Below are positions 8,289-64,000 of a DNA stretch of 64,000 nucleotides, piece after piece. Below the pieces are notes generated by a model. The model had not been told where the DNA came from. It saw only the letters and a program-made list of their open reading frames with translations, and did not search any database. Position numbers and translations under genes: made by a program. This DNA comes from an uncultured Helicobacter sp. (GTDB lineage: Bacteria > Campylobacterota > Campylobacteria > Campylobacterales > UBA6016): assembly GCA_964568395.1 (NCBI GenBank), contig CAZMPN010000005.1:29897-93896 (forward strand), given 5' to 3'. Numbering within the stretch: position 1 is the first letter of the stretch; each line of letters starts with the position of its first letter.

Positions 8289-8292
8289 TTTT

Positions 8293-9387: not shown

Positions 9388-9390
9388 TTT

Positions 9391-10407: not shown

Positions 10408-10447
10408 ATTATGCGCCTTTTAAAAACTTTATTTTATATACCAAAGG
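10408..10447 (-). promoter_or_regulatory. 40-nt AT-rich intergenic gap; possible internal promoter/RBS region
   Basis: One of only four gaps longer than 35 nt in the locus. The minus strand reads GCCTTTGGTATATAAAATAAAGTTTTTAAAAGGCGCATAAT then ATG, and contains a TATAAA/TATATA -10-like element. Confidence 0.2.
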
Positions 10448-48991: not shown

Positions 48992-49551
48992 GCTTGCGGC
49001 TCTTTGTTTAAGCACTCCAAATATTCATTTGCTATAATGGAATACTCTAGCATATTGTGAAATGAACCATTTTTATATACCGCCAATCTCCTGATCCCCT
49101 CTTGTTTCATGCCAAGTTTTTGCGCAACTTTTTGCATACCTATGTTTCCCTCCAACGTTCCGCAATAAACCCTGTTTAAATTTAACTCTAAAAAAGCATG
49201 TCTTAACAAGGCACTCAGTGCCTCAACGGCATAGCCACGCCCCCAGTTTTGTTTACTTCCAAGTAAAATGTTTAAACTGGCGCTTCTATTTAAAAGATCT
49301 ATATCGCCTATTGAAACATTGCCTATATGAAGCATGCTATCTCTTAAATGCAAAGCAAGGGCAATAATATTTTTATTATTAGTCACATACTCAATATATT
49401 TAAATGCGGCATCTTTAGTATAGGGGAAATAGCGATGCCCGTTAAAGCGACACACTTCTGGATCGTTGAGCCATCCTATATAGTCATCGGTTATATGGGC
49501 AACATTCAATGGGCAAAGCTCTAATCTTTCAGTACTAATAAAACTGTTCAT
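48988..49551 (-). CDS. GNAT N-acetyltransferase (RimJ/RimL-like)
   Basis: 187 aa. ERLELCPL N-terminus, and WGRGYAVEALSALLRHAF (GNAT motif A region). Confidence 0.8.
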   Translation of the reverse strand: MNSFISTERLELCPLNVAHITDDYIGWLNDPEVCRFNGHRYFPYTKDAAFKYIEYVTNNKNIIALALHLRDSMLHIGNVSIGDIDLLNRSASLNILLGSKQNWGRGYAVEALSALLRHAFLELNLNRVYCGTLEGNIGMQKVAQKLGMKQEGIRRLAVYKNGSFHNMLEYSIIANEYLECLNKEPQA

Positions 49552-49552
49552 A

Positions 49553-50791
49553 CTACTTCAACTCATTAATATTTTCGCATACTTTCTGATATGCATTTAT
49601 AACATCTTGCATATCGTCTTTCGATATCGAAGATTTTGTAAAGTCATGCAAAAATAATTTATTGGCATACATATCCTCTACAATAGGTAGTTTTAAGTCG
49701 CAACCAAAAATTGGAAGTCTGTAGAGTGGTTTTGTGTATCCACACCAAACCTGAACGCCGTCGCTCTCATAGCCCTCAACCACGTCAAGCTCGGCGCAAA
49801 CCGCATCCACAAACCTCTCCCTTGTTACTCCGGCTTTCTCTTTTAAAAATCTAAACCCTTGAATATAATAAGCATGCGTACGGTCATTTCCAATAGTCGT
49901 TGTTTCTATAAAATCAAATTTCGTCAGAACGTCGTCGTATGTTTTTGCATACTCCTGCCTTAGAGAAAGCTCTTTATCTAATCTATCTTGAAGCTGGACA
50001 GAGGCTATTGCAGCCTGAACTTCAGTAATCCTAAAATTAAATCCGTAAATATTTTTCAAATCTAATCTACCCATGCCTTCCACTACCGCCTCAGAGTGAT
50101 TCCTTAAAAGCTGGAGCCTAATCGCAAGCTCATCATTGTCGGTTACGCAAACCCCTCCCTCTCCGGACTGTATATGTTTATGCACGTTTAGACTAAATAC
50201 ACCTATATCGCCTATAGTCCCGGCTTTTTTGCCTTTATATATAGCGCCCGGGGACTGTGAAGCATCCTCAATAACTTTAATATTATTTTCTTTCGCTACG
50301 GCCATTATCTCGTCCATATCTGCTGGGCAGCCAAAGATATGGACAACTATGATAGCTTTTGTTTTTGGCGTAATTTTACTTTTAATGCTCTCTGGAGTTA
50401 TATTGTAGTGATTAGGGTCTATGTCTGCGAATACAGGAACGGCACCCCACATTAAAGGCGCAGTTGCGGATACGGACATAGAATATGGGCTAACTATAAC
50501 TTCATCGCCATTTTTAATATCTAGCGCCCCAAGCGCTATTTGAATTGCAGATGAAGCCGAGTTTACAGACACGGAATGCTTGCAGCCGAAATATTTAGAC
50601 CACTTGGTTTCAAAATCCTGGACTTCAATTCCGCCATAAAACTGTTTTTCATCCCATGATCCTATAAAGCCGGATAGTACACCCCTGTCTAATACTCTGT
50701 TAGCGGCAGCTTTTTCTGCTTCACCTATCGTATTATATGCTTTAAATTTTCTTCTTCTAACGGCCTCGCCACCATTTATCGCCAATTTCAT
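49553..50791 (-). CDS. DegT/DnrJ/EryC1/StrS-family sugar aminotransferase (long form)
   Basis: 412 aa. NSASSAIQIALGALDIKNGDEVIVSPYSM, and putative PLP-lysine region FSLNVHKHIQSGEGG. Confidence 0.85.
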   Translation of the reverse strand: MKLAINGGEAVRRRKFKAYNTIGEAEKAAANRVLDRGVLSGFIGSWDEKQFYGGIEVQDFETKWSKYFGCKHSVSVNSASSAIQIALGALDIKNGDEVIVSPYSMSVSATAPLMWGAVPVFADIDPNHYNITPESIKSKITPKTKAIIVVHIFGCPADMDEIMAVAKENNIKVIEDASQSPGAIYKGKKAGTIGDIGVFSLNVHKHIQSGEGGVCVTDNDELAIRLQLLRNHSEAVVEGMGRLDLKNIYGFNFRITEVQAAIASVQLQDRLDKELSLRQEYAKTYDDVLTKFDFIETTTIGNDRTHAYYIQGFRFLKEKAGVTRERFVDAVCAELDVVEGYESDGVQVWCGYTKPLYRLPIFGCDLKLPIVEDMYANKLFLHDFTKSSISKDDMQDVINAYQKVCENINELK

Positions 50792-50792
50792 A

Positions 50793-51767
50793 TCAAACTC
50801 CCTTCAATTCAGAAAAACTTCTTATTTTTATGATTTCTTTATGCGGAAAGACTATTCTTTTTGTGCCATACTCCGGTACAAAACTATAGGTAGCTTTTCC
50901 AAGCATTTGAGATATTACGAGGCCAGCGCTTTCTATTCCGAAAACTATCCTTGAGTTCATAATCTGCCGCACTAACTCAGTTTTTCCGTCGACGACAATC
51001 TCTATATCGTTATCGTATCTTATTTTATTCAAAATATTCTCCGCAAAAACCTGTTCGACATGGTTTGGATGAAATCTAACAACTATCTTCGAAATACCTA
51101 TATTCTTAAGCAAATCAATACTATTCATCATTTCCGTAAACACATCAAACTCGTCAAAGTTGTATATTTTAAGACCATTATTTAATTTTTTATTATCGTC
51201 CGACAGAGGATCCGCAATATACAATAGAGTATTATTGTGATTGCTCGATTCAAGTCTGCTCGCACACTCAAGTATATCCCTGTAATACTCATTCTCTATA
51301 TAGATAACTTTTTCACCGTAAAGTTTCTCGGCAATGCCAAAAGCATATTTATCGCCAACGAATATGTGCTTTGGCATATAATCCGGATAGCTACTTTTAG
51401 AATCAACCCCACTGTGCGGTATATAAAAATTATCAAAATTTACCCAGTGATCCAAAAATACGCCATTATCTATTCCGTATTTATTTGCCATTAATATGGC
51501 TTCTCTCTCGAAATCAGGAACTAGGCTTCTGCCCGCGAGCACAAAGTCGCCCGCCCCTAAACTGCTTATTTCATCAAAATTATTTTTAATTTCTATCTCG
51601 CCAACTTTGTCTTTAAAGATATTTTTAGCTGGCCCGTCCAAGCAAAAACTTATATCTTGATAGAATATTTTATTTTTAACCAGAGAAGAAATAATTTGCG
51701 CAGCGCCGGCTTCATAGCATACGACTACTAGCTTTTTAACTCCATTTTTAAATGGATATGGAAGCAT
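50793..51767 (-). CDS. hypothetical protein (no recognisable family)
   Basis: 324 aa intact ORF, tightly packed between an aminotransferase (1-nt gap) and an oxidoreductase (20-nt overlap). Alternating beta/alpha-like pattern but no motif I can name. Confidence 0.5.
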   Translation of the reverse strand: MLPYPFKNGVKKLVVVCYEAGAAQIISSLVKNKIFYQDISFCLDGPAKNIFKDKVGEIEIKNNFDEISSLGAGDFVLAGRSLVPDFEREAILMANKYGIDNGVFLDHWVNFDNFYIPHSGVDSKSSYPDYMPKHIFVGDKYAFGIAEKLYGEKVIYIENEYYRDILECASRLESSNHNNTLLYIADPLSDDNKKLNNGLKIYNFDEFDVFTEMMNSIDLLKNIGISKIVVRFHPNHVEQVFAENILNKIRYDNDIEIVVDGKTELVRQIMNSRIVFGIESAGLVISQMLGKATYSFVPEYGTKRIVFPHKEIIKIRSFSELKGV

Positions 51768-52704
51768 TTTTTATATACTCACAAATTTCAGTAGTAGCCA
51801 CGGCATCTTCAACGTCGCAATATTCATCTTCGCGCAAAAGCATACCCTCTACATGCTCCACAACATGTTTCATATATACGTTCATCTGAGGATATCTAAT
51901 GTTATCGGCTTCTTTTAATGTTTTTAGCTCCGGGAAAAGCGGGTCTTGAACAGATTCAAAAAATTTTGCCTTAAACCCCCAATCATATATACAATATCTT
52001 TTCCTATTACATACAATATCCAATTCTCCAAGCGAATAGTCAATATTTTTATGCGTTACAAAATACACACTAAAACCGTCATACTTCATTATAAAATGTG
52101 CCGCATAATCATTATCAGTTTTTTGTCTATCTAAAACAATAACGGAAGAAGGTTTTTTGAAAAAAAATAGCATTAGATTAATAAAATGCGACGCATTGGT
52201 AAATAACCCGTTAGTATAGTGCACTATAACACTAGATACATCGCCAGCACTAAAAAGACTATTTTTTAGCTCCACAAAGCAAGGCTCAACACGCCGCATA
52301 TAATTTATATATAATTTAATTCCGTTCGCAGCAGCTATGCTTTTTATCTTAAGAGCTTCTTCAACACTGGACGATATAGGCTTTTCAACAATAACGAGTT
52401 TAGGCTTGAACTTTAAAATATCCAAAAATACAGGCAGTCTAACATGTGTCGGGGTGCATATCGAGATGACATCTACAGAGTTGCAATAATTAAAAGCATC
52501 ATCAATATTGGCAAAAGCTTTCTTGCCAGAAAAAATCTCAAATTCATCTCTTCTGTTTTTTTCACTGTCCACACCGCCTACAAGATCAAAAGAGGCGTTG
52601 TTTAAAAATGCCTTAGTATGCGAGAATATCTCATCTTCACTACCGCTCAAATCAAAACCGAGAGCTATTTTACCAAGTCCGACAATTAAGACTTTGTGCT
52701 TCAT
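51748..52704 (-). CDS. Gfo/Idh/MocA-family NAD(P)-dependent sugar oxidoreductase
   Basis: 318 aa. KVLIVGLGKIALGF Rossmann and EKP motif (VIVEKPIS). Confidence 0.75.
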   Translation of the reverse strand: MKHKVLIVGLGKIALGFDLSGSEDEIFSHTKAFLNNASFDLVGGVDSEKNRRDEFEIFSGKKAFANIDDAFNYCNSVDVISICTPTHVRLPVFLDILKFKPKLVIVEKPISSSVEEALKIKSIAAANGIKLYINYMRRVEPCFVELKNSLFSAGDVSSVIVHYTNGLFTNASHFINLMLFFFKKPSSVIVLDRQKTDNDYAAHFIMKYDGFSVYFVTHKNIDYSLGELDIVCNRKRYCIYDWGFKAKFFESVQDPLFPELKTLKEADNIRYPQMNVYMKHVVEHVEGMLLREDEYCDVEDAVATTEICEYIKNASISI

Positions 52705-53408
52705 AAAGCACCCGTTCGTCTTAACTCTTCGACTAAGTCATGGCTATTAAAATTAGGATTTTTATCATGTAGTTTAGGCAAAATCGATTTTATGAACCTT
52801 AAATCCTCAGGGGTATCAAGCGTCAATCTTAAATCGGGATATCTTAGCGAGTCTGGCGGCAGAAGTGTTAAATGACTATATTGGTCAGGCCTATTTCTAA
52901 AATACCAGCTAACATGCTCTCTGTCGTCAGATGTTTGCCCAAGCCTATCGGCTTCCTCTAGAAGGTCAACGCTAAAAACCTGCACATCCAAACCGTCTGG
53001 ATAGCCGTTAGGTTCAAAGTTTTTTGCATAATCGCATTTGTTATATATATAAAGCCCAACTACCTGCGATATAATATCCGGATCTACGAAAGGACAGTCT
53101 CCGTGCAGCTCAACTACAACATCGGCATTATAACTTTTTGCCGCTCCAAGCACCCTGCCCAACACATCATCTTCTGACCCTCTAAAACAACCAACGCCGA
53201 TTTTATTCGCCAATTCTTCTATAGGGTCATCTGTTCTGTTTGTTGTCGTCGCAAATACCACCTCGTCAACCATAGAGGATCTGCGTATTCTATTTGCTAT
53301 ATATTCTAAGAAGCTTACACCGTCTACGGCTTCCATAAGAACTTTGCCAGGAAGCCTCGTAGATGTCATTCTGCACTCTATGGTTGCAACAACCTTTTTA
53401 GCTTGCAT
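52701..53408 (-). CDS. SpsF/FlmC-type cytidylyltransferase (CMP-nonulosonate synthetase-like)
   Basis: 235 aa. ATIECRMTSTRLPGKVL N-terminus is typical of the CTP_transf_3 SpsF subgroup. Confidence 0.75.
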   Translation of the reverse strand: MQAKKVVATIECRMTSTRLPGKVLMEAVDGVSFLEYIANRIRRSSMVDEVVFATTTNRTDDPIEELANKIGVGCFRGSEDDVLGRVLGAAKSYNADVVVELHGDCPFVDPDIISQVVGLYIYNKCDYAKNFEPNGYPDGLDVQVFSVDLLEEADRLGQTSDDREHVSWYFRNRPDQYSHLTLLPPDSLRYPDLRLTLDTPEDLRFIKSILPKLHDKNPNFNSHDLVEELRRTGAL

Positions 53409-53410
53409 AA

Positions 53411-54355
53411 CTATATAAGGCCTTTGTCTTTATAGAAAGTTACCCTGCTATAAAAATTATAATCTAGATCCAAAATATGCACATATTCGAGCATTTTGAT
53501 ACTTTCATTGTGCCATCTGATAAAGAAATTCAAAACATCGTCCGAATTATCTTTTGGAAAATCAATATTTTTATCATTAACTTTCTTTGCAATAATATTT
53601 ACTATTTCTTGATCCCAATAGTTGTTAGTTTTAACCACTTTAAACCCGCACTTATTCAAAAAGCCCTGAAGACTTTTGATGCTAAAAAGATATGGGTGAA
53701 CATCGCCCGGCTGTTTGCCAAAATACAATCCCATGGGCTTTGTAAATGGCAGCAGGACTCTTGCACTCATTTGCAAATAGACGTATCCATCATCATTCAA
53801 ACATGCCCATGCCGCTTCCAGCATATCCGTAGCAGATTGAGAATTTTGCAATGTCCATAGTATTGTTGCTATATCTGCGTTTGGTCTTGCATTGTTAGCA
53901 ATAATCTCATTTTGATAATAATCCTCTATTGTTCCGAGATAGTTATCTATGCCATTTTTCAGCATCAAATCATGGTTTGTCTTAGACGATTCAACCCCTT
54001 TAACTTCGGCGCCATATTTACGTATCATTTCCAAAAACTGTCCATCACCAGCGCCTATATCGATAACCTTTTTGCCTGACAATCCCAAATGTAAATCCAA
54101 AAATTCAGCCGCATAGGTGTGTCTTGCTTTGAAATAAGGATTTCTGGCAACATAGTTACCTTTATTAAACATCTCCTCTTCCCAATATTTTGCAAGCTCT
54201 TCCGGTGTTCTTCTATATTTAAAGTAAACAAGACCGCAACCTTTGCAAACGTGATACGGCACACCACCTGTATATTTTCTTATATACGGCAACTCAACAG
54301 CCTCATCGTGCCCACATAGCTCGCACTGCAATATTTCTTTACCAAATTCGCTCAT
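53411..54355 (-). CDS. SAM methyltransferase with N-terminal Cys4 zinc ribbon
   Basis: 314 aa. CELCG...CKGCG ribbon and motif I VIDIGAGDGQFLEMI. Confidence 0.7.
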   Translation of the reverse strand: MSEFGKEILQCELCGHDEAVELPYIRKYTGGVPYHVCKGCGLVYFKYRRTPEELAKYWEEEMFNKGNYVARNPYFKARHTYAAEFLDLHLGLSGKKVIDIGAGDGQFLEMIRKYGAEVKGVESSKTNHDLMLKNGIDNYLGTIEDYYQNEIIANNARPNADIATILWTLQNSQSATDMLEAAWACLNDDGYVYLQMSARVLLPFTKPMGLYFGKQPGDVHPYLFSIKSLQGFLNKCGFKVVKTNNYWDQEIVNIIAKKVNDKNIDFPKDNSDDVLNFFIRWHNESIKMLEYVHILDLDYNFYSRVTFYKDKGLI

Positions 54356-55113
54356 TCTCTCACCTCTACTTTTTTATTCTTCAAATACTGTTTTGCGCTT
54401 TTAATGCTTGATTCCGTAAAATGGAATATATTGGTCGTGCATGCAGCATCTGCCCCACAATTAAAAGCATCGGCAAAATGCTGCCAACTCCCCGCGCCTC
54501 CACACACAACCAAAGGTATATTAATTTTACAAGACGATGTTTTTATCATCTCAAGATCATACCCATCCAGCATACCGTCTTTATCTATAGAGTTTAAAAA
54601 TATCTCGCCAGCCCCATGCTGTTCAGCTTTTTGAATCCACTCAACAAGATTAGTTCCGGTATTGGTTTTTCCGTCATTAATAAAAACAACATATTCATTA
54701 TCAAGCTTTTTAACGTCTATCGAAACAACTACGCATTGAGAACCATATTTTTGGGCAATTTCAGTTATAAGACCTGGGTTTGCAAAAGCATTAGAATTAA
54801 TAACTATCTTATCGGCACCGTTTTTCAGATATTTTTCCGCATCTTCTATGTTTGCCACTCTACCACCAACACTAAGGGGAACGAAACAATTTTTAGATAT
54901 TTTGCGGACAACGGTCAAGAAATCTTCAAACTCTTGCTTATTCTCATCTTCTCTAGAAATATCAAGCATCACAATTTCGTCTACCGACCATGTATCTATG
55001 AAGTTATGCGTATATATATTGTTTGGAACAAAATTTCTAGTTCTATACAAAACCCCTTTATTAAAAAGAAGGGCAATTACAACTCTTTTTTTTAACACCT
55101 CAGCACATTCCAA
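54352..55113 (-). CDS. HisF-like imidazole glycerol phosphate synthase cyclase-subunit paralog (WbuZ / Cj1314c-like)
   Basis: 253 aa TIM-barrel pattern: PLSVGGRV, GADKIVINSNAF, VVVSIDVKK, GAGEIFLNSIDKDGMLDGYDLEMI, PLVVCGGAGS. Confidence 0.85.
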   Translation of the reverse strand: MECAEVLKKRVVIALLFNKGVLYRTRNFVPNNIYTHNFIDTWSVDEIVMLDISREDENKQEFEDFLTVVRKISKNCFVPLSVGGRVANIEDAEKYLKNGADKIVINSNAFANPGLITEIAQKYGSQCVVVSIDVKKLDNEYVVFINDGKTNTGTNLVEWIQKAEQHGAGEIFLNSIDKDGMLDGYDLEMIKTSSCKINIPLVVCGGAGSWQHFADAFNCGADAACTTNIFHFTESSIKSAKQYLKNKKVEVRE

Positions 55114-55720
55114 TAAAGTTTTCTAAGATTTTCAATCCGTCTCTTTGGCTTTTCTCTGGGTGAAACTGTAACCCAACTATATTGTCCTTTCTTATACCTG
55201 CAACAAAATCTATCCCATATGAAGAACTTGCTATTGCATTATCCTTGTTTGATGGCACAAAATGGTAACTGTGGACGAAATATACTATTGGCTTTTGAAG
55301 ATTTTGAAAAACTGGATCACGCTCATCCACGCTCAACTCATTCCAGCCCATATGTATTTTGCGCATCTTGCCTCCGAAATCACCAAAAGGCTCCACGCTT
55401 CCGCCAATAAGCCCGAGGCCGTCATGCTCTCCGAATTCATAGCTCTTTGAGGCCAAAAGCTGCATACCAAGGCATATTCCAAGAAACGGTTTTTTGAGCT
55501 TATTGGCATATTCTTGAATTGTATCGGTAAGCCCAAATTCTCGTAAATTTTTCATGCCGTCACCGAACGCTCCAACACCAGGGAGAATGGCGCCGCTTGA
55601 AGCAAAAATCTCATCTTTGTTTCTTGTCAAAATTGCACTATGCCCTATTTTTTCGATAGCGCCAATAACCGATGCGACATTTCCGATTCCATAATCTATA
55701 ACTGCTATTTGTTTTTGCAT
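55100..55720 (-). CDS. HisH-like class I glutamine amidotransferase paralog (WbuY / Cj1315c-like)
   Basis: 206 aa. IAVIDYGIGN, nucleophile elbow GICLGMQLL, and FHPEKS. Confidence 0.85.
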   Translation of the reverse strand: MQKQIAVIDYGIGNVASVIGAIEKIGHSAILTRNKDEIFASSGAILPGVGAFGDGMKNLREFGLTDTIQEYANKLKKPFLGICLGMQLLASKSYEFGEHDGLGLIGGSVEPFGDFGGKMRKIHMGWNELSVDERDPVFQNLQKPIVYFVHSYHFVPSNKDNAIASSSYGIDFVAGIRKDNIVGLQFHPEKSQRDGLKILENFIGMC

Positions 55721-55726
55721 TTGTGT

Positions 55727-56836
55727 TTAAAGCGGACTTCTAAGTTTCCATCGACCATTATCTAAATGCCAAAGCTCTTTATTTCTGTGCTTATCGACAA
55801 TATCATCAAATTCTGCTTCGGTCAAACTTAGATACTCTAGTACTTCCTTCAGGTGTCGCCTAGGAAACTCGCCGTCATATTTTCTGCAAAGTTCCAACCC
55901 TTCCTCTCTATCCAAATGCCCATTTTGTATCATTCTGCTGGCATCCCTAATAGCCCTGCCGAAACCAAACTTTACATACTGCATATAGTAATACAAATCG
56001 TCGATTTTATCATCAAGACTATCATGTCTTGTAAAAGTACCTTCGGATCTACCGCACGGACTCTCTTGAAAATCTATATGTTTTTTTACATACTCATAGT
56101 TAGACCATTGATCCCACTTGAAAAAATAACTCATATATACAGCTTTAACGCCGGCTTTTTGCACATCCTCCAAATCAGGATAAATATAGTGATTCAAGTC
56201 TTTCTCGCTAACCACATCATCAACCCAATTTCTAGGATCATCGCCTATCATATTTTCCAAAACTTCCGAAAAATCCCTTATCATATCTGATTTATCGTGC
56301 AGTTTATTGCCGCCGTATTCCGTTTCGCCATGCTCAGAGTAAAATACAAGAGGTATTTTATAGTTTGTGGCAACCCTAATAAGAGGACAATTAACGCCTG
56401 CATCCCAGTGAACCTTAGGGTTGCCTCTTTCTATGAAAAATCTCCTGGCGAGATGTCTAGAAACTTTAATATTTGTTGCGATAAACACGCTATCAAATCC
56501 ATGTTCAAGCAAAATACGCCTATTGTGCTCCCCAACCTCGGTTGGCATAAGAGGATTGAACGTTACGAGCAAAGGATTCATATTATATTCTGTTTTTAGC
56601 TTTATAGCATTGGCGGTGCTATCCTTCCCTCCGCTCCACGGAATAATACAATCCCAATATCCATCATCCCTTCTATGCGCATCCAATAGCGCCTTAAGTT
56701 CATTTTCTCTTTCTTGCCAGTCTATAATTTTATTTTTCATTGTTTCAGCATAATTGCAAGCATTACAAACGCCGTTTTCATCAAAAACAACTCTTGGCCT
56801 AGTGTTTGGCATAAGGCACTTTTTACAATATTTCAT
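55727..56836 (-). CDS. N-acetyl sugar amidotransferase, PP-loop ATPase (WbuX / WbpG / PseA-like)
   Basis: 369 aa. MKYCKKCLMPNTRPRVVFDENGVCNACNY zinc-ribbon N-terminus and PP-loop PWSGGKDS. Confidence 0.85.
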   Translation of the reverse strand: MKYCKKCLMPNTRPRVVFDENGVCNACNYAETMKNKIIDWQERENELKALLDAHRRDDGYWDCIIPWSGGKDSTANAIKLKTEYNMNPLLVTFNPLMPTEVGEHNRRILLEHGFDSVFIATNIKVSRHLARRFFIERGNPKVHWDAGVNCPLIRVATNYKIPLVFYSEHGETEYGGNKLHDKSDMIRDFSEVLENMIGDDPRNWVDDVVSEKDLNHYIYPDLEDVQKAGVKAVYMSYFFKWDQWSNYEYVKKHIDFQESPCGRSEGTFTRHDSLDDKIDDLYYYMQYVKFGFGRAIRDASRMIQNGHLDREEGLELCRKYDGEFPRRHLKEVLEYLSLTEAEFDDIVDKHRNKELWHLDNGRWKLRSPL

Positions 56837-56888
56837 ATTACTCGTCTTTGTTTTTTTAATTATAAAAGTATTAAATTATATAGCATCG
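56837..56888 (-). promoter_or_regulatory. 52-nt AT-rich gap with minus-strand TATAAT (56880..56875); candidate internal promoter for the amidotransferase module
   Basis: The minus strand reads GCGATGCTATATAATTTAATACTTTTATAATTAAAAAAACAAAGACGAGTAAT then ATG. The TATAAT lies about 39 nt upstream of the start. Sequence only. Confidence 0.25.
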
Positions 56889-57728
56889 CTACTTATTTAT
56901 ACAGAACTCGACAGCCCTAATTTTCATATCAATCGTATCAAAAACAATATCTTCTTTTTTAAGTCTAGATTCGTCAAATACAATTTCTGCTTTCCAAATA
57001 ACAATTTTACTGCCATCTGGCAAATACGCAAATGCTCCAGGATAAGGCTTTGTAAGGGCTCTTATAAAGTTATATACGTCCAGTGCGCTTCTTTTAAAAT
57101 CTATCTCGCCGTCAGCAGGCGTTCGTTTCGGATAGGCAGGGTAATTTCTTGATGGGTTGTGAAGTCTTAATGCGGTACCGTTTGCAATTTTTGGCAAAAA
57201 TTCCACTATAAGGTCCGCACCCGCTTTGGCTGATTTTTTATAAACCGTATTGCAATCATCATTCAGCATGATAGGAAAGGCTTTTTGCGCGATTATATCT
57301 CCAGCATCTGCATCTTCGGTTAGATAAAACATTGTTATTCCTGTTTCTTTCTCCCCGGCTATAATAGCCCAATTTACAGGCGCCCTGCCTCTATATTTCG
57401 GGAGTAACGATGAATGAAAACCTATGGTTCCAAGCTTTGGAATATCAAGTATCTCTTTACAAACAAGTCTTTGCCATCCGCATACTATTATTAAATCAGG
57501 ATTGATAGATTTTATTTTTTCTATATATTCAGGCTCATTGAGATTCTTTACTCTTACCAGTGTGCTTTCGTGAGCATTAGCCAGAGGCTCAAAGTCTATA
57601 AAACCGGATGTCTGTTCTTTTTTATCAAAATCTAGCGTGAATATCGCATCAACGGCAAATCCTGCATCATAGACGGCCTCCAAAACTGTATACCCTATCT
57701 CAACGGAACCTATAAAAACCAACTTCAA
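56889..57728 (-). CDS. formyltransferase (Fmt/ArnA N-domain-like sugar N-formyltransferase)
   Basis: 279 aa. HSSLLPKYRGRAPVNWAI folate-dependent formyltransferase signature. Shorter than housekeeping Fmt and embedded in the sugar pathway. Confidence 0.8.
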   Translation of the reverse strand: MKLVFIGSVEIGYTVLEAVYDAGFAVDAIFTLDFDKKEQTSGFIDFEPLANAHESTLVRVKNLNEPEYIEKIKSINPDLIIVCGWQRLVCKEILDIPKLGTIGFHSSLLPKYRGRAPVNWAIIAGEKETGITMFYLTEDADAGDIIAQKAFPIMLNDDCNTVYKKSAKAGADLIVEFLPKIANGTALRLHNPSRNYPAYPKRTPADGEIDFKRSALDVYNFIRALTKPYPGAFAYLPDGSKIVIWKAEIVFDESRLKKEDIVFDTIDMKIRAVEFCINK

Positions 57729-57729
57729 T

Positions 57730-58401
57730 TTATAAGCTCCCTACACCTATTTTTCTGACCAGCTTAAAAGGCTCCGCGTATTCAACGCCTACGGTTAATC
57801 CCCAATAGTTTGCATGCACTCTTAGAGCCTCGGGGCTTCTTGGATGCGGGTAAGGCCTGCATTCGCTGGGATATCTTTTCATAGCTTCTATTTTGGCGTC
57901 AATCTCATCTTTTATATCCACAAAAATATTAGGCACAAACATTTTTGCCAAATCCGTCATATTCCATTCGGTAGACGATGGCACATTATACGAATACACC
58001 TCTTTCACTACTTGGCCAACTATCGGTCTTGTAGCAGTAAAAGTCGCTTCGGCGAGTATCTGATGGTCCTTGTTTAGATCGTTTGCAAAATGCGTAAAAA
58101 CTCTATGCGGCTTCAGGCTTGCAATATATGCTTCGATGGACTGAATAATATTACTCAAAGGTATGGTTTCCAGTTTTTGGTTTGGAAAGCTCTCAAAAAA
58201 AAGCTCTTTAGTACCAATTAACCTATTCGCATCTTTCGCATTCTGCCTAAGCTTCTCTTCCATATCTCCTGAGTATCTACCGTCGGCACCCCCAGTCATT
58301 ATTACTACAAAAAAATCCTCTCTAGAGGATAGTTTTTTTATAATGCCGCCGCAGCCAAGTATTTCATCGTCAGGATGCGCCGCTATAATTAAATTAGTCA
58401 T
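57730..58401 (-). CDS. PIG-L/LmbE-family N-deacetylase
   Basis: 223 aa. IAAHPDDEILGCGG signature at the N-terminus and a later HxxH-type region (DLNKDHQIL). Confidence 0.85.
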   Translation of the reverse strand: MTNLIIAAHPDDEILGCGGIIKKLSSREDFFVVIMTGGADGRYSGDMEEKLRQNAKDANRLIGTKELFFESFPNQKLETIPLSNIIQSIEAYIASLKPHRVFTHFANDLNKDHQILAEATFTATRPIVGQVVKEVYSYNVPSSTEWNMTDLAKMFVPNIFVDIKDEIDAKIEAMKRYPSECRPYPHPRSPEALRVHANYWGLTVGVEYAEPFKLVRKIGVGSL

Positions 58402-59182
58402 TATTCCACCTATGCAAAACAGTGATTGTTTTATTTATTTTTTTAAAGCCGTTTTTGATATAGAAATTTAATGCAGAAATATTTTTTGCTTGCGTTTCAG
58501 TATAAATATTTCTATTTTTAAGTGTGTCAAGCACATGACACATCATGATGCTTCCGATATTTTTACCCCTAAAATTATCCAATACAGACACAAAAAAAAC
58601 TGTAGATTTTTCATCGCAACAGTTAACAAGAATAGTGCCGCACGGCATCCCTCCTGATAGCGCAACAAACATTTTATGATTGCTATCTATTTCATAGTTT
58701 TTAAGATAGCTCACCCATAGTTCATCGGCTTTATTGTTCTGTATGTTTATATCAGTGTGAAATCTTGTTAGCTCAAATACCGATCCTAATTGATCATATG
58801 GAAGGCCTGCATTTACGGCCTTCTCCTCAATTCTTATATCTGAATCTTTATGCCAAATTAATTCATTGGCGTCAAACTTTAACTCTATCTCGGTGTCAAC
58901 ATAATAAAAACCGCATTTTTGCAAAAAATAAACTATTTCATAGTTTGATTGGGTGTCTATTTTTGCGCTAATAAAAGCACCCCTAAACTTGCTTTCAATT
59001 TCTTCGGCCAATTCTTCAGATGGCTCAAAATTTGATTTTGAAACATCTAATAAAAAACAAGGTTTATTAAAAAAAGAGCTATCCCATTCCAAATATTTGA
59101 AGTAAATATACTTAGCCCTCTTTGCTACAAGTTCTTTAAAAGCGGATGCCGATTCGCTATCTTGATAATCTATAAAAATCAC
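58394..59182 (-). CDS. GNAT-family N-acetyltransferase (PseH-like position)
   Basis: 262 aa. C-terminal GNAT core VSVLDNFRGKNIGSIMMCHVL...ALNFYIKNGFKK. Lies directly downstream of the PseG-like gene. Confidence 0.6.
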   Translation of the reverse strand: MIFIDYQDSESASAFKELVAKRAKYIYFKYLEWDSSFFNKPCFLLDVSKSNFEPSEELAEEIESKFRGAFISAKIDTQSNYEIVYFLQKCGFYYVDTEIELKFDANELIWHKDSDIRIEEKAVNAGLPYDQLGSVFELTRFHTDINIQNNKADELWVSYLKNYEIDSNHKMFVALSGGMPCGTILVNCCDEKSTVFFVSVLDNFRGKNIGSIMMCHVLDTLKNRNIYTETQAKNISALNFYIKNGFKKINKTITVLHRWNND

Positions 59183-60156
59183 AAAATTTCCCTTATGCTA
59201 TCAGACAAGATATTGGCTTCAAAAATATCTTTTGTAAACATCGGCTTAAATGTATCTACCGCCAAATTAAGCTCTTGGGCATCAAAGCTTTTAAATCCAA
59301 TATACTTCGCCTGATTCTCACTCTCAAAATATTTACATCTTGCCACTTGGTGTTCGTAGGTAGCTATAAGGGCACACGGGGTTTTGGAGGCAACCAGCTC
59401 CGATGACGTAAGCCCGCCTGCGCCTATTGCAAAATCGCAAGCTAAATACTCCGATAGCATATCCTTAACATTTACCTTTATCTCGTACTTTATACCTCTT
59501 TTGTTCAAGTCATCTTCAAGTTTAGCTTTCTTTTCGTATCCCGCCCCAACAATAATAACCAACTCTCTGCCTTCGCAACCTATGGCATGCGCAACTTTTG
59601 ACGTAAAATCAAACTCATCTGCTCCGCCCATAGCTATTAATATTTTTTTTCTAGCGGCCGAGTATTTCCTATTTTTTATATCATCGGAATAAAAAGCCTT
59701 CGCCAGTATTACATATTTTGGGCCAAGTAAAAATTTGGTATTGGGAAACTTATTTATATCGTAGTATTTATAGGCATCAACATCCCAATTAATTACCAAT
59801 TTTATGGATTCTGGTATAAAACCGTCAAAATTTACACACAACGTTGGAATATTATTATTTAATCCAATATACTCAGTAAGCTTTCGCTCAGTAATCTCAA
59901 AAAAAAGCATATCTATGCCGTATTCGTCAATTAGCATATTAATAGCCGCCACATCCTCTTCAACACCCGCATCTTCATTAAGCCAGAATACATTTTTAGG
60001 CTTACGTTGTTCAACGATTCCCTTGGCTGCTGCGGTTTGTTGCGTCAAAAAAAAACAATCAAATTCCGACAAATATTCACTAAGCGTAATAAGAGACATT
60101 AAATCGCCTATTCCTATGGATGGTTTTGCATCTGCACGGAATAGTATTTTTTTCAT
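59179..60156 (-). CDS. PseG-like nucleotide-sugar hydrolase (GT28 C-terminal-like, GT-B fold)
   Basis: 325 aa. MKKILFRADAKPSIGIGDLMS matches the PseG-type N-terminal pattern (FRxDxxxxIGxG), and the C-half has GGADEF...AIGAGGLTSSELVASKTP. 1-nt overlap with the synthase gene. Confidence 0.6.
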   Translation of the reverse strand: MKKILFRADAKPSIGIGDLMSLITLSEYLSEFDCFFLTQQTAAAKGIVEQRKPKNVFWLNEDAGVEEDVAAINMLIDEYGIDMLFFEITERKLTEYIGLNNNIPTLCVNFDGFIPESIKLVINWDVDAYKYYDINKFPNTKFLLGPKYVILAKAFYSDDIKNRKYSAARKKILIAMGGADEFDFTSKVAHAIGCEGRELVIIVGAGYEKKAKLEDDLNKRGIKYEIKVNVKDMLSEYLACDFAIGAGGLTSSELVASKTPCALIATYEHQVARCKYFESENQAKYIGFKSFDAQELNLAVDTFKPMFTKDIFEANILSDSIREIL

Positions 60157-61211
60157 TAAAGTATAACGCTCCAGTTTATAGGATCCTCGAAAGCTATATC
60201 GCTTTTTGCGGTTATTGTATTGGCTTCAAAAAGACTAATATACTTAGGCTCAAGACCTGGTCTTTTTTTCCCGGGTCTTAAAATACTTAAATCTTCAACC
60301 TTTATGATCTCTCCTTTTTTAATATTTCTTCTCGCAAAAAGAGTCATGTAGCAAAAATCTCTAAGATATTTTTCGTGCTCATGGCATATTTTGGCACTTG
60401 AGCCATATATTATGCTATCCAAATAGACAGAGTTATTTTCATATTTTTCTCTTGCAGTGTTAATATCGGCAACCATTTTTGAAAGCTCATCCGGTTCAAG
60501 AGCAAAAAAGTGATCTGGTCCACTCATCTTTTTATCCAATGTAATATGCTTTTCTATTACGGTAGCACCCATATATACTGCCTGTATAGGAGCATCGGAA
60601 ATCTCAAAAGTATGATCTGAATAGCCTATTGCAACCTCAGGAAATGCATATTTAAGGGTATTTAAAACACCCATATTTACTTCATTAAGAGGTGTGGGAT
60701 ATTTGATAGAACAGTGAAGAAGGGTTATATCGTTATGATATTTCTGGACGCACCTTACGGCCTCTTCAGTTTCGGCCAGCGTTGAACCCCCGGTACTCAT
60801 AATAATCGGAAGTTTGGTTTTTGCGGCAGCCTCTATTAAAGGTAGATTGGTTATTGTGTATGATGAAAGCTTAATTATTTTCATACCTTTTTTGACCAAA
60901 TACTCCAAACCTTCAATGTCAAAAACAGATGCCATAAAATCAATATTTTTTGATTCACAGTAAGGCATGATAGTGTCAAGCCATTCTGGCGGCAACTCAA
61001 AAGCCTTAACTGCGCTATGTATATCATAACTATATTCTTTATCGGCATCTTTCCAGTCCAGCTTGCCAGCAGTGGTAGGGTACATACCGTTCGCGGTAAA
61101 AAACTGAAACTTTGCGGCGTGGCATCCTGCGTCAACACTCGCATCTATCATTTTTAAACAGTTCTCCAAAGAACCGTTAAAATTTATTCCTATCTCGGCA
61201 ATAATATACAT
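60156..61211 (-). CDS. nonulosonic acid synthase (NeuB/PseI/LegI family)
   Basis: 351 aa. MYIIAEIGINFNGSLE...AAKFQ TIM-barrel N-terminus, GYSDHT, and C-terminal SAF-like EDLSILRPG. Confidence 0.9.
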   Translation of the reverse strand: MYIIAEIGINFNGSLENCLKMIDASVDAGCHAAKFQFFTANGMYPTTAGKLDWKDADKEYSYDIHSAVKAFELPPEWLDTIMPYCESKNIDFMASVFDIEGLEYLVKKGMKIIKLSSYTITNLPLIEAAAKTKLPIIMSTGGSTLAETEEAVRCVQKYHNDITLLHCSIKYPTPLNEVNMGVLNTLKYAFPEVAIGYSDHTFEISDAPIQAVYMGATVIEKHITLDKKMSGPDHFFALEPDELSKMVADINTAREKYENNSVYLDSIIYGSSAKICHEHEKYLRDFCYMTLFARRNIKKGEIIKVEDLSILRPGKKRPGLEPKYISLFEANTITAKSDIAFEDPINWSVIL

Positions 61212-62869
61212 TATTTAACTCCGTATGCCTTTTTCCAATCATCTAAAACCATATTCTTATAGGCATCCCTATTATATTTGCCTTTTTTATCCCACTCAAA
61301 CCACTTATTTACAGGCGCAGAAAAGCCTCTCTTGTCTATACGATCGCATATTTCTTTTGGAATAAACTTTCTGGCCACTTCTTTAAGCGCCCACTTTGTA
61401 ATACCGTCTTTTATTTTGTATTTAGATGACATCGAAAAAGCAAACTGCACAAGACGATAATCCAAAAACGGTGAACGGTTTTCTATGCTAAATGCCATAG
61501 ATAGTCTATCGGCCATCTGTAAAAGCACCTGCATTGTGCTGTAAAAATCGTTTAGCCCCATGGCATGGACTACATCTTTTTGCATCTTATCAAAATAAAA
61601 TCCGATACTTTCGTTCAAAAACTTGAGCACCTTCGCATCATAAGGATTTTCGCATCTATTGACTAGTTTTGTATATCTATCTACAGGGGAACCATAATAT
61701 CTATTTATCAGATAGCTATACTGTTTCATAGCCTCCAATGAGTGTATCTGTTCATCGTGGTGCAAAAGGTGATATCTATGGTATCCCCCAAAGACCTCAT
61801 CGGCGCCATCGCCTGCCATCATCACCTTGACACCATCTTTTTTTACTCTCTCTAGAAGCATCCACAGCGTAAAACTCGTCCATGTGCAAGGCGTATCAAG
61901 ATGATAGGCTATCTGCTCTCTGGTACGTAAAAAATCTTCTTTATTTGGCTCAACGACGATAAGCTCTTTTTTTATCTGCTTTGCTACCAGTCTCGCGTAG
62001 TCCAGTTCATTAAAATCATCATAATCGTAATGCGCCGTATAAAGATAATCAGGCTTTGCAATACATGCGACCAAAGAGCTGTCTATACCGCCGCTCACAA
62101 AAGCCCCGAAACTGTGGGCGCAGTTTTTGGTTCTAAGAAGAATAGAATCCTCGACAAGCTCGGCAAGAGAGCTTACAATCTTGTTTTCATCGTCAGGTAG
62201 CTCTATTAGATTATCCCATATTTTCCAATAGCTTTTAATGCTGGCTTTGCCGTTTTTGACATGTATATATTCGCCTGGCTCAAGCAGATAGACGTCCTTA
62301 AAAAGAGTCTCTTTGCCGGTAGTAAATTCATACGCCTTATAAGAAACGGCCTTATCGTTAAACTTTGGTTCTATGAGCCCTATGAGCGACTTTATCTCAC
62401 TAGCAAAAGCAAAAAAATCTTTTCCTTTTACATAATAAAGCGGTTTTTCTCCCACCTTGTCTCTAACTATAAATGTTTCGTTCTTCTTTTTATCATGTAC
62501 CGCAAAAGCGTACATCCCATTATATTCTTTAAATGCGTCTACGCCTTTGTCCACGAAACTAACCATTGCAGTCTCTGTATCAGACCCCGTCTTAAAAGCA
62601 TATTTGCCGAGATTTTTTCTTATCTCTTCATGGTTATATATTTCACCATTATAGACTATCGCAAAATTACCGCTACTATCTTCATAGGGGATATGGTGCT
62701 CAACGGTGTCTATAATAGATAAGCGTACCATCCCTATAGTAGCATCGCCATATGTTGCCAACCCGGACTGGTCTGGGCCCCTATGGACACCCTTGTCGAG
62801 CATGTTCTGGACTATCGTCTTTGTATCATAATCCCTATTTTTACTAATAAAACCAGCTATACCACACAT
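61211..62869 (-). CDS. asparagine synthetase B-like glutamine-dependent amidotransferase, paralog 4
   Basis: 552 aa. MCGIAGF (Cys2), MVRLSIID, and PP-loop FVSGGIDSSLVAC. Confidence 0.85.
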   Translation of the reverse strand: MCGIAGFISKNRDYDTKTIVQNMLDKGVHRGPDQSGLATYGDATIGMVRLSIIDTVEHHIPYEDSSGNFAIVYNGEIYNHEEIRKNLGKYAFKTGSDTETAMVSFVDKGVDAFKEYNGMYAFAVHDKKKNETFIVRDKVGEKPLYYVKGKDFFAFASEIKSLIGLIEPKFNDKAVSYKAYEFTTGKETLFKDVYLLEPGEYIHVKNGKASIKSYWKIWDNLIELPDDENKIVSSLAELVEDSILLRTKNCAHSFGAFVSGGIDSSLVACIAKPDYLYTAHYDYDDFNELDYARLVAKQIKKELIVVEPNKEDFLRTREQIAYHLDTPCTWTSFTLWMLLERVKKDGVKVMMAGDGADEVFGGYHRYHLLHHDEQIHSLEAMKQYSYLINRYYGSPVDRYTKLVNRCENPYDAKVLKFLNESIGFYFDKMQKDVVHAMGLNDFYSTMQVLLQMADRLSMAFSIENRSPFLDYRLVQFAFSMSSKYKIKDGITKWALKEVARKFIPKEICDRIDKRGFSAPVNKWFEWDKKGKYNRDAYKNMVLDDWKKAYGVK

Positions 62870-64000
62870 TATTTAAGCAACGCCTTTAGCCTACCGTCGC
62901 CAACCTCATGGTAGATTGTCGTTGAAGAAAATGACAAATGTCTCAGAATACCAACCCCGTCAATAACTATTTTTGCACCATATATGCCATTTTCATTTAT
63001 ATTTTTTTGCGTCAGGTAACTATAATCCTGATTCGACCCCATAACAACATAGCCTTCCGTAAAGTCCGCTTTATTTTTCATATTATTAAATTTTGCAAAA
63101 GGCAAAATATCGGCCATTTCTTTTTTTGTAAAGTATGGATCATGGGCAAAGACTTTTATCCCAATGTTATTTAAATATTCTGCCAAAAGCACAGCCGCAG
63201 ACGCTCTAATATCTTTTCTTGCGCCTTCTGCAGAAAGCCCCATGATTGTTACGGAAGAGATGTTTTTCTGTTTGAGAATATCCGCATAAAACAACACCGT
63301 AGCCATATTTACAGCTTGTGCTTCTTTTATGATTGATAAATAATCGCCATTTTGTCCGGCAAACACATGGTCAATATGTAGCATATGCCTATGGTTTAGA
63401 AGATTTAGGCCACCTCTCTTTGTTGAAAGATCTAGATTTTTTACTATTGCCGACGATACTTCATTCACGTTTATATCTGGATACGCAAAAGAAAGTTGTG
63501 TAAAAAAAGCTTCTGCGCTATATTTGAGACAGTTTTTGGCATTTTCGTATACTTCGGCTTCTTCTATGCTACTTAAAGTCTCAAATTTTATTCCTAAAAT
63601 ATCAAAAAACTCAGAAATAATTTCAAAAGAACTTTTGTCATTGGCCGCTATTATCCTGTTTTCGCTCCCAATCAAAAACTCTTCTACGCTCCAATCACTC
63701 CTAAATGCTGACGCAAAATAACACTTGGCCCCTTTTTTCTTTAAAGGTTTAATAAAATAGTTTTGAACAGTTCCGACTTTTTCTGCAGACTGAAAAATAA
63801 CTAAAGAACCGGATAAGTTGTTTATATACTGCGTAAATATGTCAACAAGTTTACTATATGCCTCCTGCTTAGAGTAATCTCCGCCGAAAGCGGGGAGTGC
63901 TATAATGTGGACATTAGACTCAAACATTTTTGAGTAATTATCAACAAACGCAACATTATTTAAATCAATTTTTGGAACATCGTTACTTTTGGACCATGCT
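62869..64000 (-). CDS. divergent UDP-glucose/GDP-mannose dehydrogenase-family protein, 5' end off window
   Basis: The track ORF starts at the ATG at 63927, but the frame stays open to the window edge (AWSKSNDVPKIDLNNVAFVDNYSK precedes it). The central-domain-like SIEEAEVYENAKNCLKYSAEAF and C-domain-like IMGLSAEGARKDIRASAAVLLAEYLNNIGIKVFAHDPY fit this family. Confidence 0.5.
   Translation of the reverse strand, partial: AWSKSNDVPKIDLNNVAFVDNYSKMFESNVHIIALPAFGGDYSKQEAYSKLVDIFTQYINNLSGSLVIFQSAEKVGTVQNYFIKPLKKKGAKCYFASAFRSDWSVEEFLIGSENRIIAANDKSSFEIISEFFDILGIKFETLSSIEEAEVYENAKNCLKYSAEAFFTQLSFAYPDINVNEVSSAIVKNLDLSTKRGGLNLLNHRHMLHIDHVFAGQNGDYLSIIKEAQAVNMATVLFYADILKQKNISSVTIMGLSAEGARKDIRASAAVLLAEYLNNIGIKVFAHDPYFTKKEMADILPFAKFNNMKNKADFTEGYVVMGSNQDYSYLTQKNINENGIYGAKIVIDGVGILRHLSFSSTTIYHEVGDGRLKALLK

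Follow-up and report, generated by a model that had tools for sequence, protein, structure and literature searches.

A candidate N-acyl editing cassette in a nonulosonate locus of an uncultured Helicobacter sp.

The gene trio and its setting

Three adjacent genes encoding a GNAT-family N-acetyltransferase (GNAT262), a PIG-L/LmbE-family metal-dependent N-deacetylase and a formyltransferase lie in a 64-kb stretch of contig CAZMPN010000005.1 from an uncultured Helicobacter sp. (Table 1). The whole of this stretch, hereafter the window, is one long minus-strand surface-polysaccharide locus, which encodes glycosyltransferases, several AsnB-type amidotransferases, two flippases and a WecA-like transferase, and also contains GDP-mannose genes. 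Open reading frames, translations and Pfam matches confirmed the tight packing and the motifs that had been reported for the trio from the letters of the sequence: GNAT262 and the PIG-L gene overlap by 8 nt (58394-58401), and a single nucleotide (57729) separates the PIG-L gene from the formyltransferase gene. In addition, the start of GNAT262 overlaps the upstream PseG-like gene by 4 nt. A scan of the region from 55 to 61.5 kb found no promoter- or terminator-like signals above shuffled expectation, which is consistent with a single operon.

The trio is found in the same order in independent contigs (L002/L003, L088, L089 and L169), whose component proteins are 66-81% identical to those of the window, indicating that the juxtaposition is not due to chance. 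In L169, a 498-kb contig from a close relative with a GNAT that is 81% identical, the gene order is identical to that of the window. The assignment of the trio to nonulosonate biosynthesis, made in the initial sequence-only reading, is borne out by the genes nearby, which encode NeuB, a PseG-like hydrolase, WbuX/HisH/HisF, a CMP-transferase and a PseC-like aminotransferase.

Features of the encoded proteins

The PIG-L protein matches PF02585 over residues 4-123 with 77.4 bits (gathering threshold, 28.2). The AHPDDE motif occupies residues 8-13, and H9, D11, D12, D112 and H113, which align to the HPDD and HPDH metal/catalytic motifs of TT1542, are invariant in 16 diverse homologs with identities down to 46%. 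A PHPRS motif specific to the subfamily is also invariant in these 16 homologs, and the first His of the HPDH motif is replaced in the subfamily by an invariant Asn110. The protein can be aligned from end to end with TT1542, diacetylchitobiose deacetylase and BshB, and its relatives in the PDB are diacetylchitobiose and GlcNAc-malate deacetylases. The best NCBIfam match is BshB1 (TIGR04001) with a score of 63.6 against a cut-off of 182.5, and BshB2 (TIGR04000) scores 33.1 against a cut-off of 195.25. To our knowledge, all characterized PIG-L enzymes take off the 2-N-acetyl group of GlcNAc glycosides.

The formyltransferase passes the Pfam gathering thresholds for both Formyl_trans_N (PF00551; 115.4 against 26.1) and Formyl_trans_C (PF02911; 42.2 against 21.1), and the folate motif SLLPxxRG is present at residues 105-120 (HSSLLPKYRGRAPVNW). 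Its closest PDB match is the N-terminal domain of ArnA (E 7e-43), the triad of which is Asn102-His104-Asp140. His104 and Asp140 align with His105 and Asp141 of the window protein, whereas the catalytic Asn102 aligns with Gly103 (G103-F104-H105 ... D141), and the Asn-x-His ... Asp triad is therefore incomplete. A catalytic Asn is present in the canonical, characterized sugar and glycinamide ribonucleotide (GAR) formyltransferases; the Gly at this position is invariant in all orthologs of the window protein (class A, see below) that were examined, both bacterial and haloarchaeal. The window protein also lacks the C-terminal decarboxylase domain of ArnA, and the ArnA model (NF005998) is matched with a score of 221.2 against 777, only over profile positions 1-258 of 649. 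A housekeeping fmt gene, which had been named as a possible identity, was rejected as far as the window allows this to be tested: the Fmt model (TIGR00460) gives 144.7 against 201.5, the C-terminal domain is shortened, with Formyl_trans_C covering only profile positions 3-52 of 100, and proteins of this class are almost always paired with PIG-L.

GNAT262 consists of a GNAT domain and an N-terminal domain of ~150 residues, and passes the gathering thresholds of Acetyltransf_1 (42.1 against 20.7), Acetyltransf_7 (42.3 against 27) and Acetyltransf_10. A sequence search of the PDB returned only weak generic GNAT matches, and the likeness to WecD became visible by structure prediction and fold search: the AlphaFold2 model has a pLDDT of 94, and its best fold match in the PDB is WecD (2fs5; E 6.5e-13, TM 0.74), which covers both domains. 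WecD is the dTDP-4-amino-4,6-dideoxygalactose (dTDP-fucosamine) acetyltransferase, and both WecD and PseH acetylate the 4-amino group of nucleotide-linked 4-amino-4,6-dideoxyhexoses. The scores of GNAT262 are far under both equivalog cut-offs (WecD model NF008212, a weak full-length match of 48.9 against 219; PseH model TIGR03585, 23.5 against 93.1), and its family is small and separate, with 34 clusters. GNAT262 comes directly after the PseG-like gene wherever it occurs, whether or not PIG-L and the formyltransferase are present, and the PseG-like gene is kept upstream of the GNAT slot in all related loci. The canonical gene order is PseG-PseH; GNAT262 thus combines a WecD-like two-domain fold with a PseH-like place, and is the core acetyltransferase of the pathway. 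In three more distant relatives, L168 (Desulfobacter), L170 (Sulfuricurvum) and L171, it follows the PseG-like gene in loci that contain neither PIG-L nor the formyltransferase.

Distribution and pairing of PIG-L and the formyltransferase

The PIG-L subfamily is represented by ~2,900 matches in a word-indexed search, by 641 clusters at 50% identity (E<=1e-30) in an exhaustive search, and by more than 522 matches in GTDB species genomes from many bacterial phyla and archaea, including Omnitrophota, Planctomycetota, Acidobacteriota, Nitrospirota, Clostridia, Bacillus, Helicobacter, candidate-phyla-radiation (CPR) bacteria, Woesearchaeota and Methanoregula. Seventy-nine PIG-L loci were analyzed by calling open reading frames and labeling them by phmmer with the window proteins as queries. 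Within 8 kb of PIG-L, NeuB was found in 53 of these loci, an aminotransferase in 48, a CMP-transferase in 38 and the PseG-like gene in 36, and the frequency of NeuB points to a linkage with nonulosonates. With these numbers of clusters, genomes and NeuB-linked loci, the description of the remove-and-replace logic as uncommon does not hold.

A Formyl_trans_N-like gene directly adjoins PIG-L in 36 of the 79 loci. The formyltransferase-like proteins near PIG-L fall into four motif classes: class A, which is the type found in the window (G-[FCM]-H); class B (N-x-x-x-H); class C, with the canonical N-x-H and a match (E 2e-38) to the dTDP-4-amino-4,6-dideoxyglucose formyltransferase model; and class D (C-F-H-M-T-D), which is the commonest neighbor and lies upstream of PIG-L in 25 loci. 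Its immediate partners belong mostly to the classes without the Asn, and class C (VioF-like) enzymes coexist with such Asn-less partners in L009, L021, L025 and L175. Class D proteins (loci L009-L087, e.g., L024 9273-10001; L172 368-1048; L176 7306-8004) are ~230 aa long, have no catalytic Asn, share the extended motif C-F-H-M-T-D-(V/L)-P-Y-G-R-G-G-S-P-L-Q-N-L-I and are annotated as "methionyl-tRNA formyltransferase" in deposited records.

A reciprocal scan was performed on metagenome contigs centered on class A formyltransferases, in which strong matches (at least 190 bits) with enough flanking DNA were taken as evaluable. PIG-L was directly adjacent in 18 of the 19 evaluable loci, as against 3 of 22 weaker, ArnA-like matches. 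PIG-L and the class A formyltransferase thus form a near-obligate pair, and the window has both the direct adjacency and the class A signature. Most loci with the pair contain no GNAT262. Two loci are of the bacillosamine type: L114 encodes an aminotransferase, a PglF-like dehydratase, Wzy, the formyltransferase, PIG-L, a PglC-like phosphoglycosyl transferase, a CE4 deacetylase, a flippase and a glycosyltransferase, and L093 encodes an aminotransferase, a phosphoglycosyl transferase, PIG-L, the formyltransferase and a PglF-like dehydratase. Where the neighborhood is annotated, the pair appears to be a mobile unit that travels with pathways for UDP-GlcNAc-derived 2,4-diamino-2,4,6-trideoxyhexoses, of which the nonulosonate pathways are an extension. 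Picosynechococcus sp. NIES-970, a cyanobacterium in culture, has a PseB-PseC-PseF-PseG-PseH set on a plasmid, in which an LmbE-like gene and a gene for a class D formyltransferase are inserted before NeuB; the orthologs in this organism are NIES970_27370 to NIES970_27400 on plasmid1.

More distant PIG-L homologs (34-41% identity) are found on P. megaterium (Priestia) plasmids (L177; pBM600, 7986-12180), where their neighbors are a GT4, a phosphotransferase and an ATP-grasp enzyme, with spore-coat genes in the vicinity and no NeuB, and on S. meliloti pSymB (L174), where the homolog lies beside an aminotransferase with no NeuB nearby. These members indicate that the substrate range of the subfamily extends beyond nonulosonates.

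Comparison with known systems

The CMP-nonulosonates of Ca. Kuenenia stuttgartiensis carry one formyl group and one free amine, and have been tied to a deacetylase and a formyltransferase in a legionaminic acid (Leg)-type cluster (SugarBase, 2026 preprint, bioRxiv 10.64898/2026.04.20.719630). As these CMP-sugars are already modified, editing precedes glycan assembly. In the window, too, deacetylase and formyltransferase genes lie among neuB, aminotransferase and CMP-transferase genes, the arrangement that marks N-acyl editing of the Kuenenia/Halorubrum type. In contrast to the window, no acetyltransferase was reported for Kuenenia and the product keeps a free amine; the window exceeds the Kuenenia set by two GNATs, one of them the core enzyme, and by the genes for acetamidino formation, so that a fully N-acylated product is expected.

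The glycans of Halorubrum sp. PV6 end in 5-N-formyl-legionaminic acid, with the formyl group at N5 as an exchange of the N5 acetyl would predict, and the corresponding cluster contains a ~317-aa formyltransferase gene beside that of a NeuD-like acetyltransferase, followed by gene 1052 and LegI (PMC6137143). Halorubrum sp. LN27 encodes, side by side, a PglD/NeuD-like acetyltransferase, PIG-L (38% identical) and a class A formyltransferase of 314 aa that has the G-M-H motif and is 39% identical to that of the window; no NeuB lies within 9 kb of this locus. On a Halorussus plasmid, neuB, PIG-L, neuC and a class A formyltransferase occur together. The haloarchaeal loci thus resemble the window in bringing together an acetyltransferase, a PIG-L deacetylase and a class A formyltransferase with the Asn-to-Gly replacement, but their acetyltransferase is of the hexapeptide-repeat PglD/NeuD type rather than a GNAT, and their route is of the Leg type (NeuC/LegG), whereas that of the window proceeds via a PseG-like hydrolase.

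The ArnA formyltransferase domain, with ArnD, is the closest solved and characterized homolog, and performs folate-dependent N-formylation of a UDP-amino sugar with an amidohydrolase as partner; in the Arn pathway, however, formylation is transient, the group being taken off again by an enzyme of the CE4 family rather than by a PIG-L protein. LpxC/LpxD, MshB-MshC-MshD, BshB and the eukaryotic NDST follow the logic considered here, in which the acetyl group of UDP-GlcNAc is removed and the nitrogen then receives another group; these systems differ from the window in substrates and partner enzymes, and two of them, MshB and BshB, are members of the PIG-L superfamily like the window protein. Deacetylation of an inherited GlcNAc acetyl group followed by re-acylation of the same nitrogen is a classical logic, as exemplified by LpxC/LpxD, MshB and NDST, and a 2026 preprint has already put it forward for nonulosonates.

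Gene fusions and interchangeable positions

Twelve of the top 150 representatives of the PIG-L subfamily are about twice the normal length, and ten of these were domain-scanned. PIG-L is fused to an Acetyltransf_3 GNAT of the PseH type, in either order, in eight of the ten; one of the others is a fusion with a formyltransferase comprising both the N- and C-terminal domains (P0227), and one is a PIG-L-FolD fusion (P0183), the gene for which adjoins NeuB and a class D formyltransferase-like gene. FolD makes 10-formyl-tetrahydrofolate, the formyl donor. The GNAT domain in these fusions shows full-length homology to GNAT187 of the window (E 4e-19), and not to GNAT262. Since deacetylase and acetyltransferase are found on one polypeptide, the apparent paradox of the trio is a recurrent design rather than an oddity of this operon.

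The positions on either side of PIG-L are occupied by other genes in L005/L006, the PIG-L orthologs of which are 82% identical to that of the window (84% by BLASTP). Before PIG-L, the GNAT is replaced by a NodU-like carbamoyltransferase; after PIG-L, where the window has the formyltransferase, these loci encode a GNAT, an acyl carrier protein, a PP-loop ATPase and a FabD-like acyltransferase. These exchanges indicate that the slot before PIG-L is the "PseH" slot of the pathway, and that the slot after it holds acyl-transfer machinery for the exposed amine; the interchangeability of the latter fits re-acylation of the freed amine by whatever follows. PIG-L is the invariant center of the editing cassette.

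These arrangements bear on two alternative explanations. In one, which is judged improbable, one of the acyl groups would serve as a transient protecting group: either the acetyl group installed by the GNAT would later be removed by PIG-L, as had been proposed at first, or, as in the Arn pathway, formylation would pull an unfavorable transamination forward and PIG-L would be a deformylase that exposes the free amine. The near-obligate pairing of a formyltransferase with an amidohydrolase mirrors ArnA/ArnD, and nonulosonates with a free amine exist in Kuenenia. The first version is at odds with the independent occurrence of GNAT262 and PIG-L, GNAT262 being present without the cassette in the three loci named above and the pair being mostly found without GNAT262; its acetyl group is therefore unlikely to be transient. 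With regard to the second, PIG-L is often fused to or located beside acetyltransferases rather than formyltransferases, it has no formyltransferase partner of any kind in L005/L006, and L114 has a separate CE4 (ArnD-type) deacetylase; moreover, the CMP-nonulosonate of Kuenenia retains the formyl group and has no acetyl group, which calls for a deacetylase and not a deformylase.

In the other explanation, the PIG-L protein would act on an unrelated GlcNAc conjugate, such as a lipid-linked GlcNAc or a thiol-cofactor-type precursor, and would be a mere neighbor of the nonulosonate genes. The founding PIG-L members act on GlcNAc-phosphatidylinositol (GlcNAc-PI), GlcNAc-inositol and GlcNAc-malate, BshB1 is the best NCBIfam match, the homologs beside a GT4 on the P. 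megaterium plasmids are ~41% identical and have no NeuB, and PIG-L adjoins a phosphoglycosyl transferase in L093 and L114. This explanation is nevertheless regarded as very improbable: the BshB1 score is far under its cut-off, the PIG-L gene is translationally coupled inside the nonulosonate operon, and the modifications of Kuenenia are already present on the CMP-sugar. The presence of NeuB near PIG-L in 53 of the 79 loci and the fusions to a formyltransferase, FolD and PseH-like GNATs point the same way, and also make the GlcNAc-lipid substrate considered in the sequence-only reading unlikely.

Proposed N-acyl exchange

In pseudaminic acid (Pse)- and Leg-type routes, N5 of the nonulosonate derives from the 2-acetamido nitrogen of UDP-GlcNAc, and the PseC/LegC aminotransferase supplies N7 as an amine. 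The acyl group on N7 is chosen by the acyltransferase, whereas the acetyl group on N5 can be changed only by removal. On balance, the trio is somewhat more plausibly than otherwise explained as one core enzyme plus a portable two-gene N-acyl editing cassette, which would act in a UDP-GlcNAc-derived nonulosonate pathway and exchange the N5 acetyl group for formyl. Judging from its fold and synteny, GNAT262 would acetylate the aminotransferase-made amine (hexose N4, the future N7); PIG-L would then remove the acetyl group inherited from UDP-GlcNAc (hexose N2, the future N5), and the class A formyltransferase would formylate the freed amine with N10-formyl-tetrahydrofolate. Of the two options offered at first for an acetyltransferase and a deacetylase in one operon, action on different nitrogens is the one favored by comparative genomics, and deacetylation followed by formylation remains the best reading of the PIG-L/formyltransferase pair.

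The surviving acetamido group would be turned into acetamidino by WbuX/HisH/HisF, as family knowledge suggests, and the co-conserved methyltransferase may methylate it to give (N-methyl)acetamidino. PseA/WbuX-type enzymes convert an existing N-acetyl group, with no deacetylase required; with the WbuX/HisH/HisF set next to the trio, replacement by acetimidoyl after deacetylation, as had been suggested, is not supported. These steps are predicted to yield a 5-formamido-7-acetamido(-idino) nonulosonate in CMP-activated form. The analysis shows the genes with their family assignments and catalytic motifs, the pairing of PIG-L with the formyltransferase, the fusions and the independence of the GNAT from the cassette, whereas the substrates and the regiochemistry are inferred; the enzymes may act on the UDP-sugar, the free hexose, the free nonulosonate or the CMP-nonulosonate.

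A competing assignment, considered unlikely although it accounts for several observations, is an ArnA-like regiochemistry, in which the formyltransferase would formylate the 4-amine (the future N7) and the N2/N5 amine freed by PIG-L would be left free or re-acylated by a GNAT, possibly with a group other than acetyl. The ArnA formyltransferase domain, which is the closest characterized relative, has a UDP-4-amino sugar as its substrate, a formyl group and a free amine occur together in the Kuenenia product, PIG-L/PseH-like GNAT fusions are common, and L093 and L114 have no acetyltransferase beside their dehydratase, aminotransferase, formyltransferase, PIG-L and phosphoglycosyl transferase. 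On the other hand, the transaminase-derived amine is already served by the core GNAT262, which is present in relatives without a formyltransferase; the class C N-x-H enzymes beside Asn-less partners (in the four loci given above) suggest a division of labor; and the Halorubrum sugar carries its formyl group on N5 (PMC6137143).

Several points weigh against the N5 exchange. ArnA (UDP-Ara4N) and WecD (dTDP-Fuc4N), the nearest characterized relatives of the two acyltransferases, both act on 4-amino sugar nucleotides, so that homology by itself is not enough to place the formyltransferase at N2/N5; the absence of any visible acetyltransferase in the bacillosamine-type loci fits formylation of the new 4-amine equally well. 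With no canonical catalytic Asn, the formyltransferase could differ from the standard in its donor or mechanism. No PseB/LegB-type 4,6-dehydratase is recognizable in the conserved core block described below, which makes the sugar scaffold uncertain, and the second aminotransferase and second GNAT (48988-50791) leave the nitrogen bookkeeping unclosed. Some members of the PIG-L subfamily, such as those of P. megaterium pBM600 and S. meliloti pSymB, lie outside any nonulosonate pathway. As for the systems used in comparison, the Kuenenia preprint names no family for its deacetylase (bioRxiv 10.64898/2026.04.20.719630), and HrrPV6_1052, a putative PIG-L gene by synteny, is not described in the report on Halorubrum sp. 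PV6 (PMC6137143). In the literature searched, no biochemistry was found for nonulosonate-linked PIG-L proteins or for these formyltransferase classes, and a 2026 survey of Clostridium pseudaminic acid mentions neither.

A broader possibility, held only tentatively and thought unlikely, is that PIG-L with its Asn-less partners (classes A, D and possibly B) constitutes a mechanistically distinct, portable "acetyl-to-formyl editor" for UDP-GlcNAc-derived diamino sugars, which here would act on an undescribed nonulosonate scaffold, e.g., a triamino or carboxamide-bearing one, built without a 4,6-dehydratase by the radical-SAM/SPASM enzyme, the second aminotransferase, the divergent NDP-sugar dehydrogenase and the AsnB amidotransferase.

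Significance

Many natural nonulosonates carry formyl, hydroxybutyryl or other groups, or a free amine, at N5 of Pse/Leg-type sugars, and no characterized enzyme for N5 acyl exchange was found in the literature searched. The locus and its relatives nominate a candidate N5 editor, namely a PIG-L deacetylase with interchangeable acyl-transfer partners, and related loci are present in cultured organisms (Picosynechococcus sp. NIES-970 and haloarchaea). Surface nonulosonates shape phage and immune recognition as well as surface charge, and a defined editing cassette would serve the chemoenzymatic synthesis of nonulosonate variants. The connection of a deacetylase and a formyltransferase with formylated, free-amine nonulosonates has already been made in Kuenenia; as far as the literature searched shows, there is no earlier description of the near-obligate pairing, of the classes without the Asn, of the interchangeable acyl slot or of PIG-L fused to FolD, to a formyltransferase and to PseH-like GNATs. 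The window itself is a modest result, being one more member of a widespread, predictable module with no unusual design.

Neighboring genes

The features of the locus are listed in Table 1.

Table 1. Genes of the trio and of the surrounding locus (positions in the window).
Feature	Position	Strand	Remarks
Divergent NDP-sugar dehydrogenase-like gene	62869-64000, cut by window end	minus	Pfam UDPG_MGDP_dh_C
AsnB-type glutamine amidotransferase	61211-62869	minus	TIGR01536, 384 bits
NeuB-family nonulosonate synthase	60156-61211	minus	Pfam NeuB (246 bits) and SAF; NeuB and PseI models matched, both under equivalog cut-offs
PseG-like UDP-sugar hydrolase (GT28-C fold)	59179-60156	minus	TIGR03590 PseG, E 7.8e-30, under cut-off
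GNAT262	58394-59182	minus	262 aa; two-domain WecD-like N-acetyltransferase; Pfam GNAT domains
PIG-L/LmbE-family metal-dependent N-deacetylase	57730-58401	minus	223 aa; Pfam PF02585
Class A formyltransferase (ArnA-FT-like, N- and C-terminal domains)	56889-57728	minus	279 aa; Pfam and NCBIfam matches
WbuX	55727-56836	minus	TIGR03573, 340.6 bits (cut-off 203.2)
HisH	55100-55720	minus	TIGR01855, 210 bits (cut-off 105.4)
HisF/WbuZ	54352-55113	minus	WbuZ model, 240.9 bits, under cut-off (299.7)
S-adenosylmethionine (SAM) methyltransferase	53411-54355	minus	Pfam Methyltransf_23
CMP-sugar synthetase (CMP-transferase)	52701-53408	minus	Second sub-block
Gfo/Idh/MocA oxidoreductase	51748-52704	minus	Second sub-block
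324-aa protein	50793-51767	minus	Second sub-block; no family match
PseC-like aminotransferase	49553-50791	minus	Second sub-block
PseH-like GNAT187	48988-49551	minus	Second sub-block
635-aa protein (GT635)	47108-49015		Weak match (E 5e-5) to BFO_1060-family glycosyltransferase domain
AsnB-type glutamine amidotransferase	32878-34719
AsnB-type glutamine amidotransferase	21488-23407
NodU-like carbamoyltransferase	16612-18366
AsnB-type glutamine amidotransferase	12708-14345

A core block is conserved between the window (59179-64000 and beyond its end), L169 (2287-10004), L168, L170 and L171, and encodes a CMP-transferase, a radical-SAM/SPASM enzyme, an aminotransferase, the divergent NDP-sugar dehydrogenase, the AsnB amidotransferase, NeuB, the PseG-like hydrolase and GNAT262. 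Past the point at which the window ends, L169 carries genes for an ABC transporter, the CMP-transferase, the radical-SAM/SPASM enzyme and a second aminotransferase, followed by the dehydrogenase-like gene. The AsnB-type gene also adjoins NeuB in L001, L002, L005 and L168-L171. A truncated dehydrogenase (62869-63927; 352 aa, compared with homologs of ~437 aa) was considered and rejected: the frame is open to base 64000 and the gene is merely cut by the window end, homologs of the protein being 435-438 aa long. Oxidation by the radical-SAM enzyme followed by transamination, together with oxidation at C6 followed by amidation, would give a nonulosonate scaffold that we could not match to any described one. 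The operon in the window contains two aminotransferases, two GNATs, two CMP-transferases and one NeuB, and the edited scaffold may be other than standard Pse or Leg.

The second sub-block (48988-53408) has no NeuB of its own; its product may be a second sugar, or it may serve to introduce a third amino group into the CMP-sugar. The methyltransferase gene also lies beside WbuX/HisH/HisF in L005, L006, L008 and L169. In L170 (8989-11764), the order is PseG-like gene, GNAT262, GT635, PhyH-like gene and MT237, which is the order of the window minus 48988-58401; the window thus has an extra eleven-gene, 9.4-kb block, from PIG-L to GNAT187, between GNAT262 and GT635, which suggests modular gain or loss of tailoring genes. 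A candidate for the nonulosonate transferase is GT635, a putative glycosyltransferase whose gene also comes immediately after the nonulosonate genes in both L169 and L170.

AsnB-type glutamine amidotransferases are encoded four times within this single polysaccharide locus, together with a NodU-like carbamoyltransferase (Table 1). The G+C content is ~0.40-0.50 in window positions 1-36000 and falls to ~0.35-0.39 in 36000-64000, the nonulosonate half, which hints at a mosaic or horizontally acquired origin.

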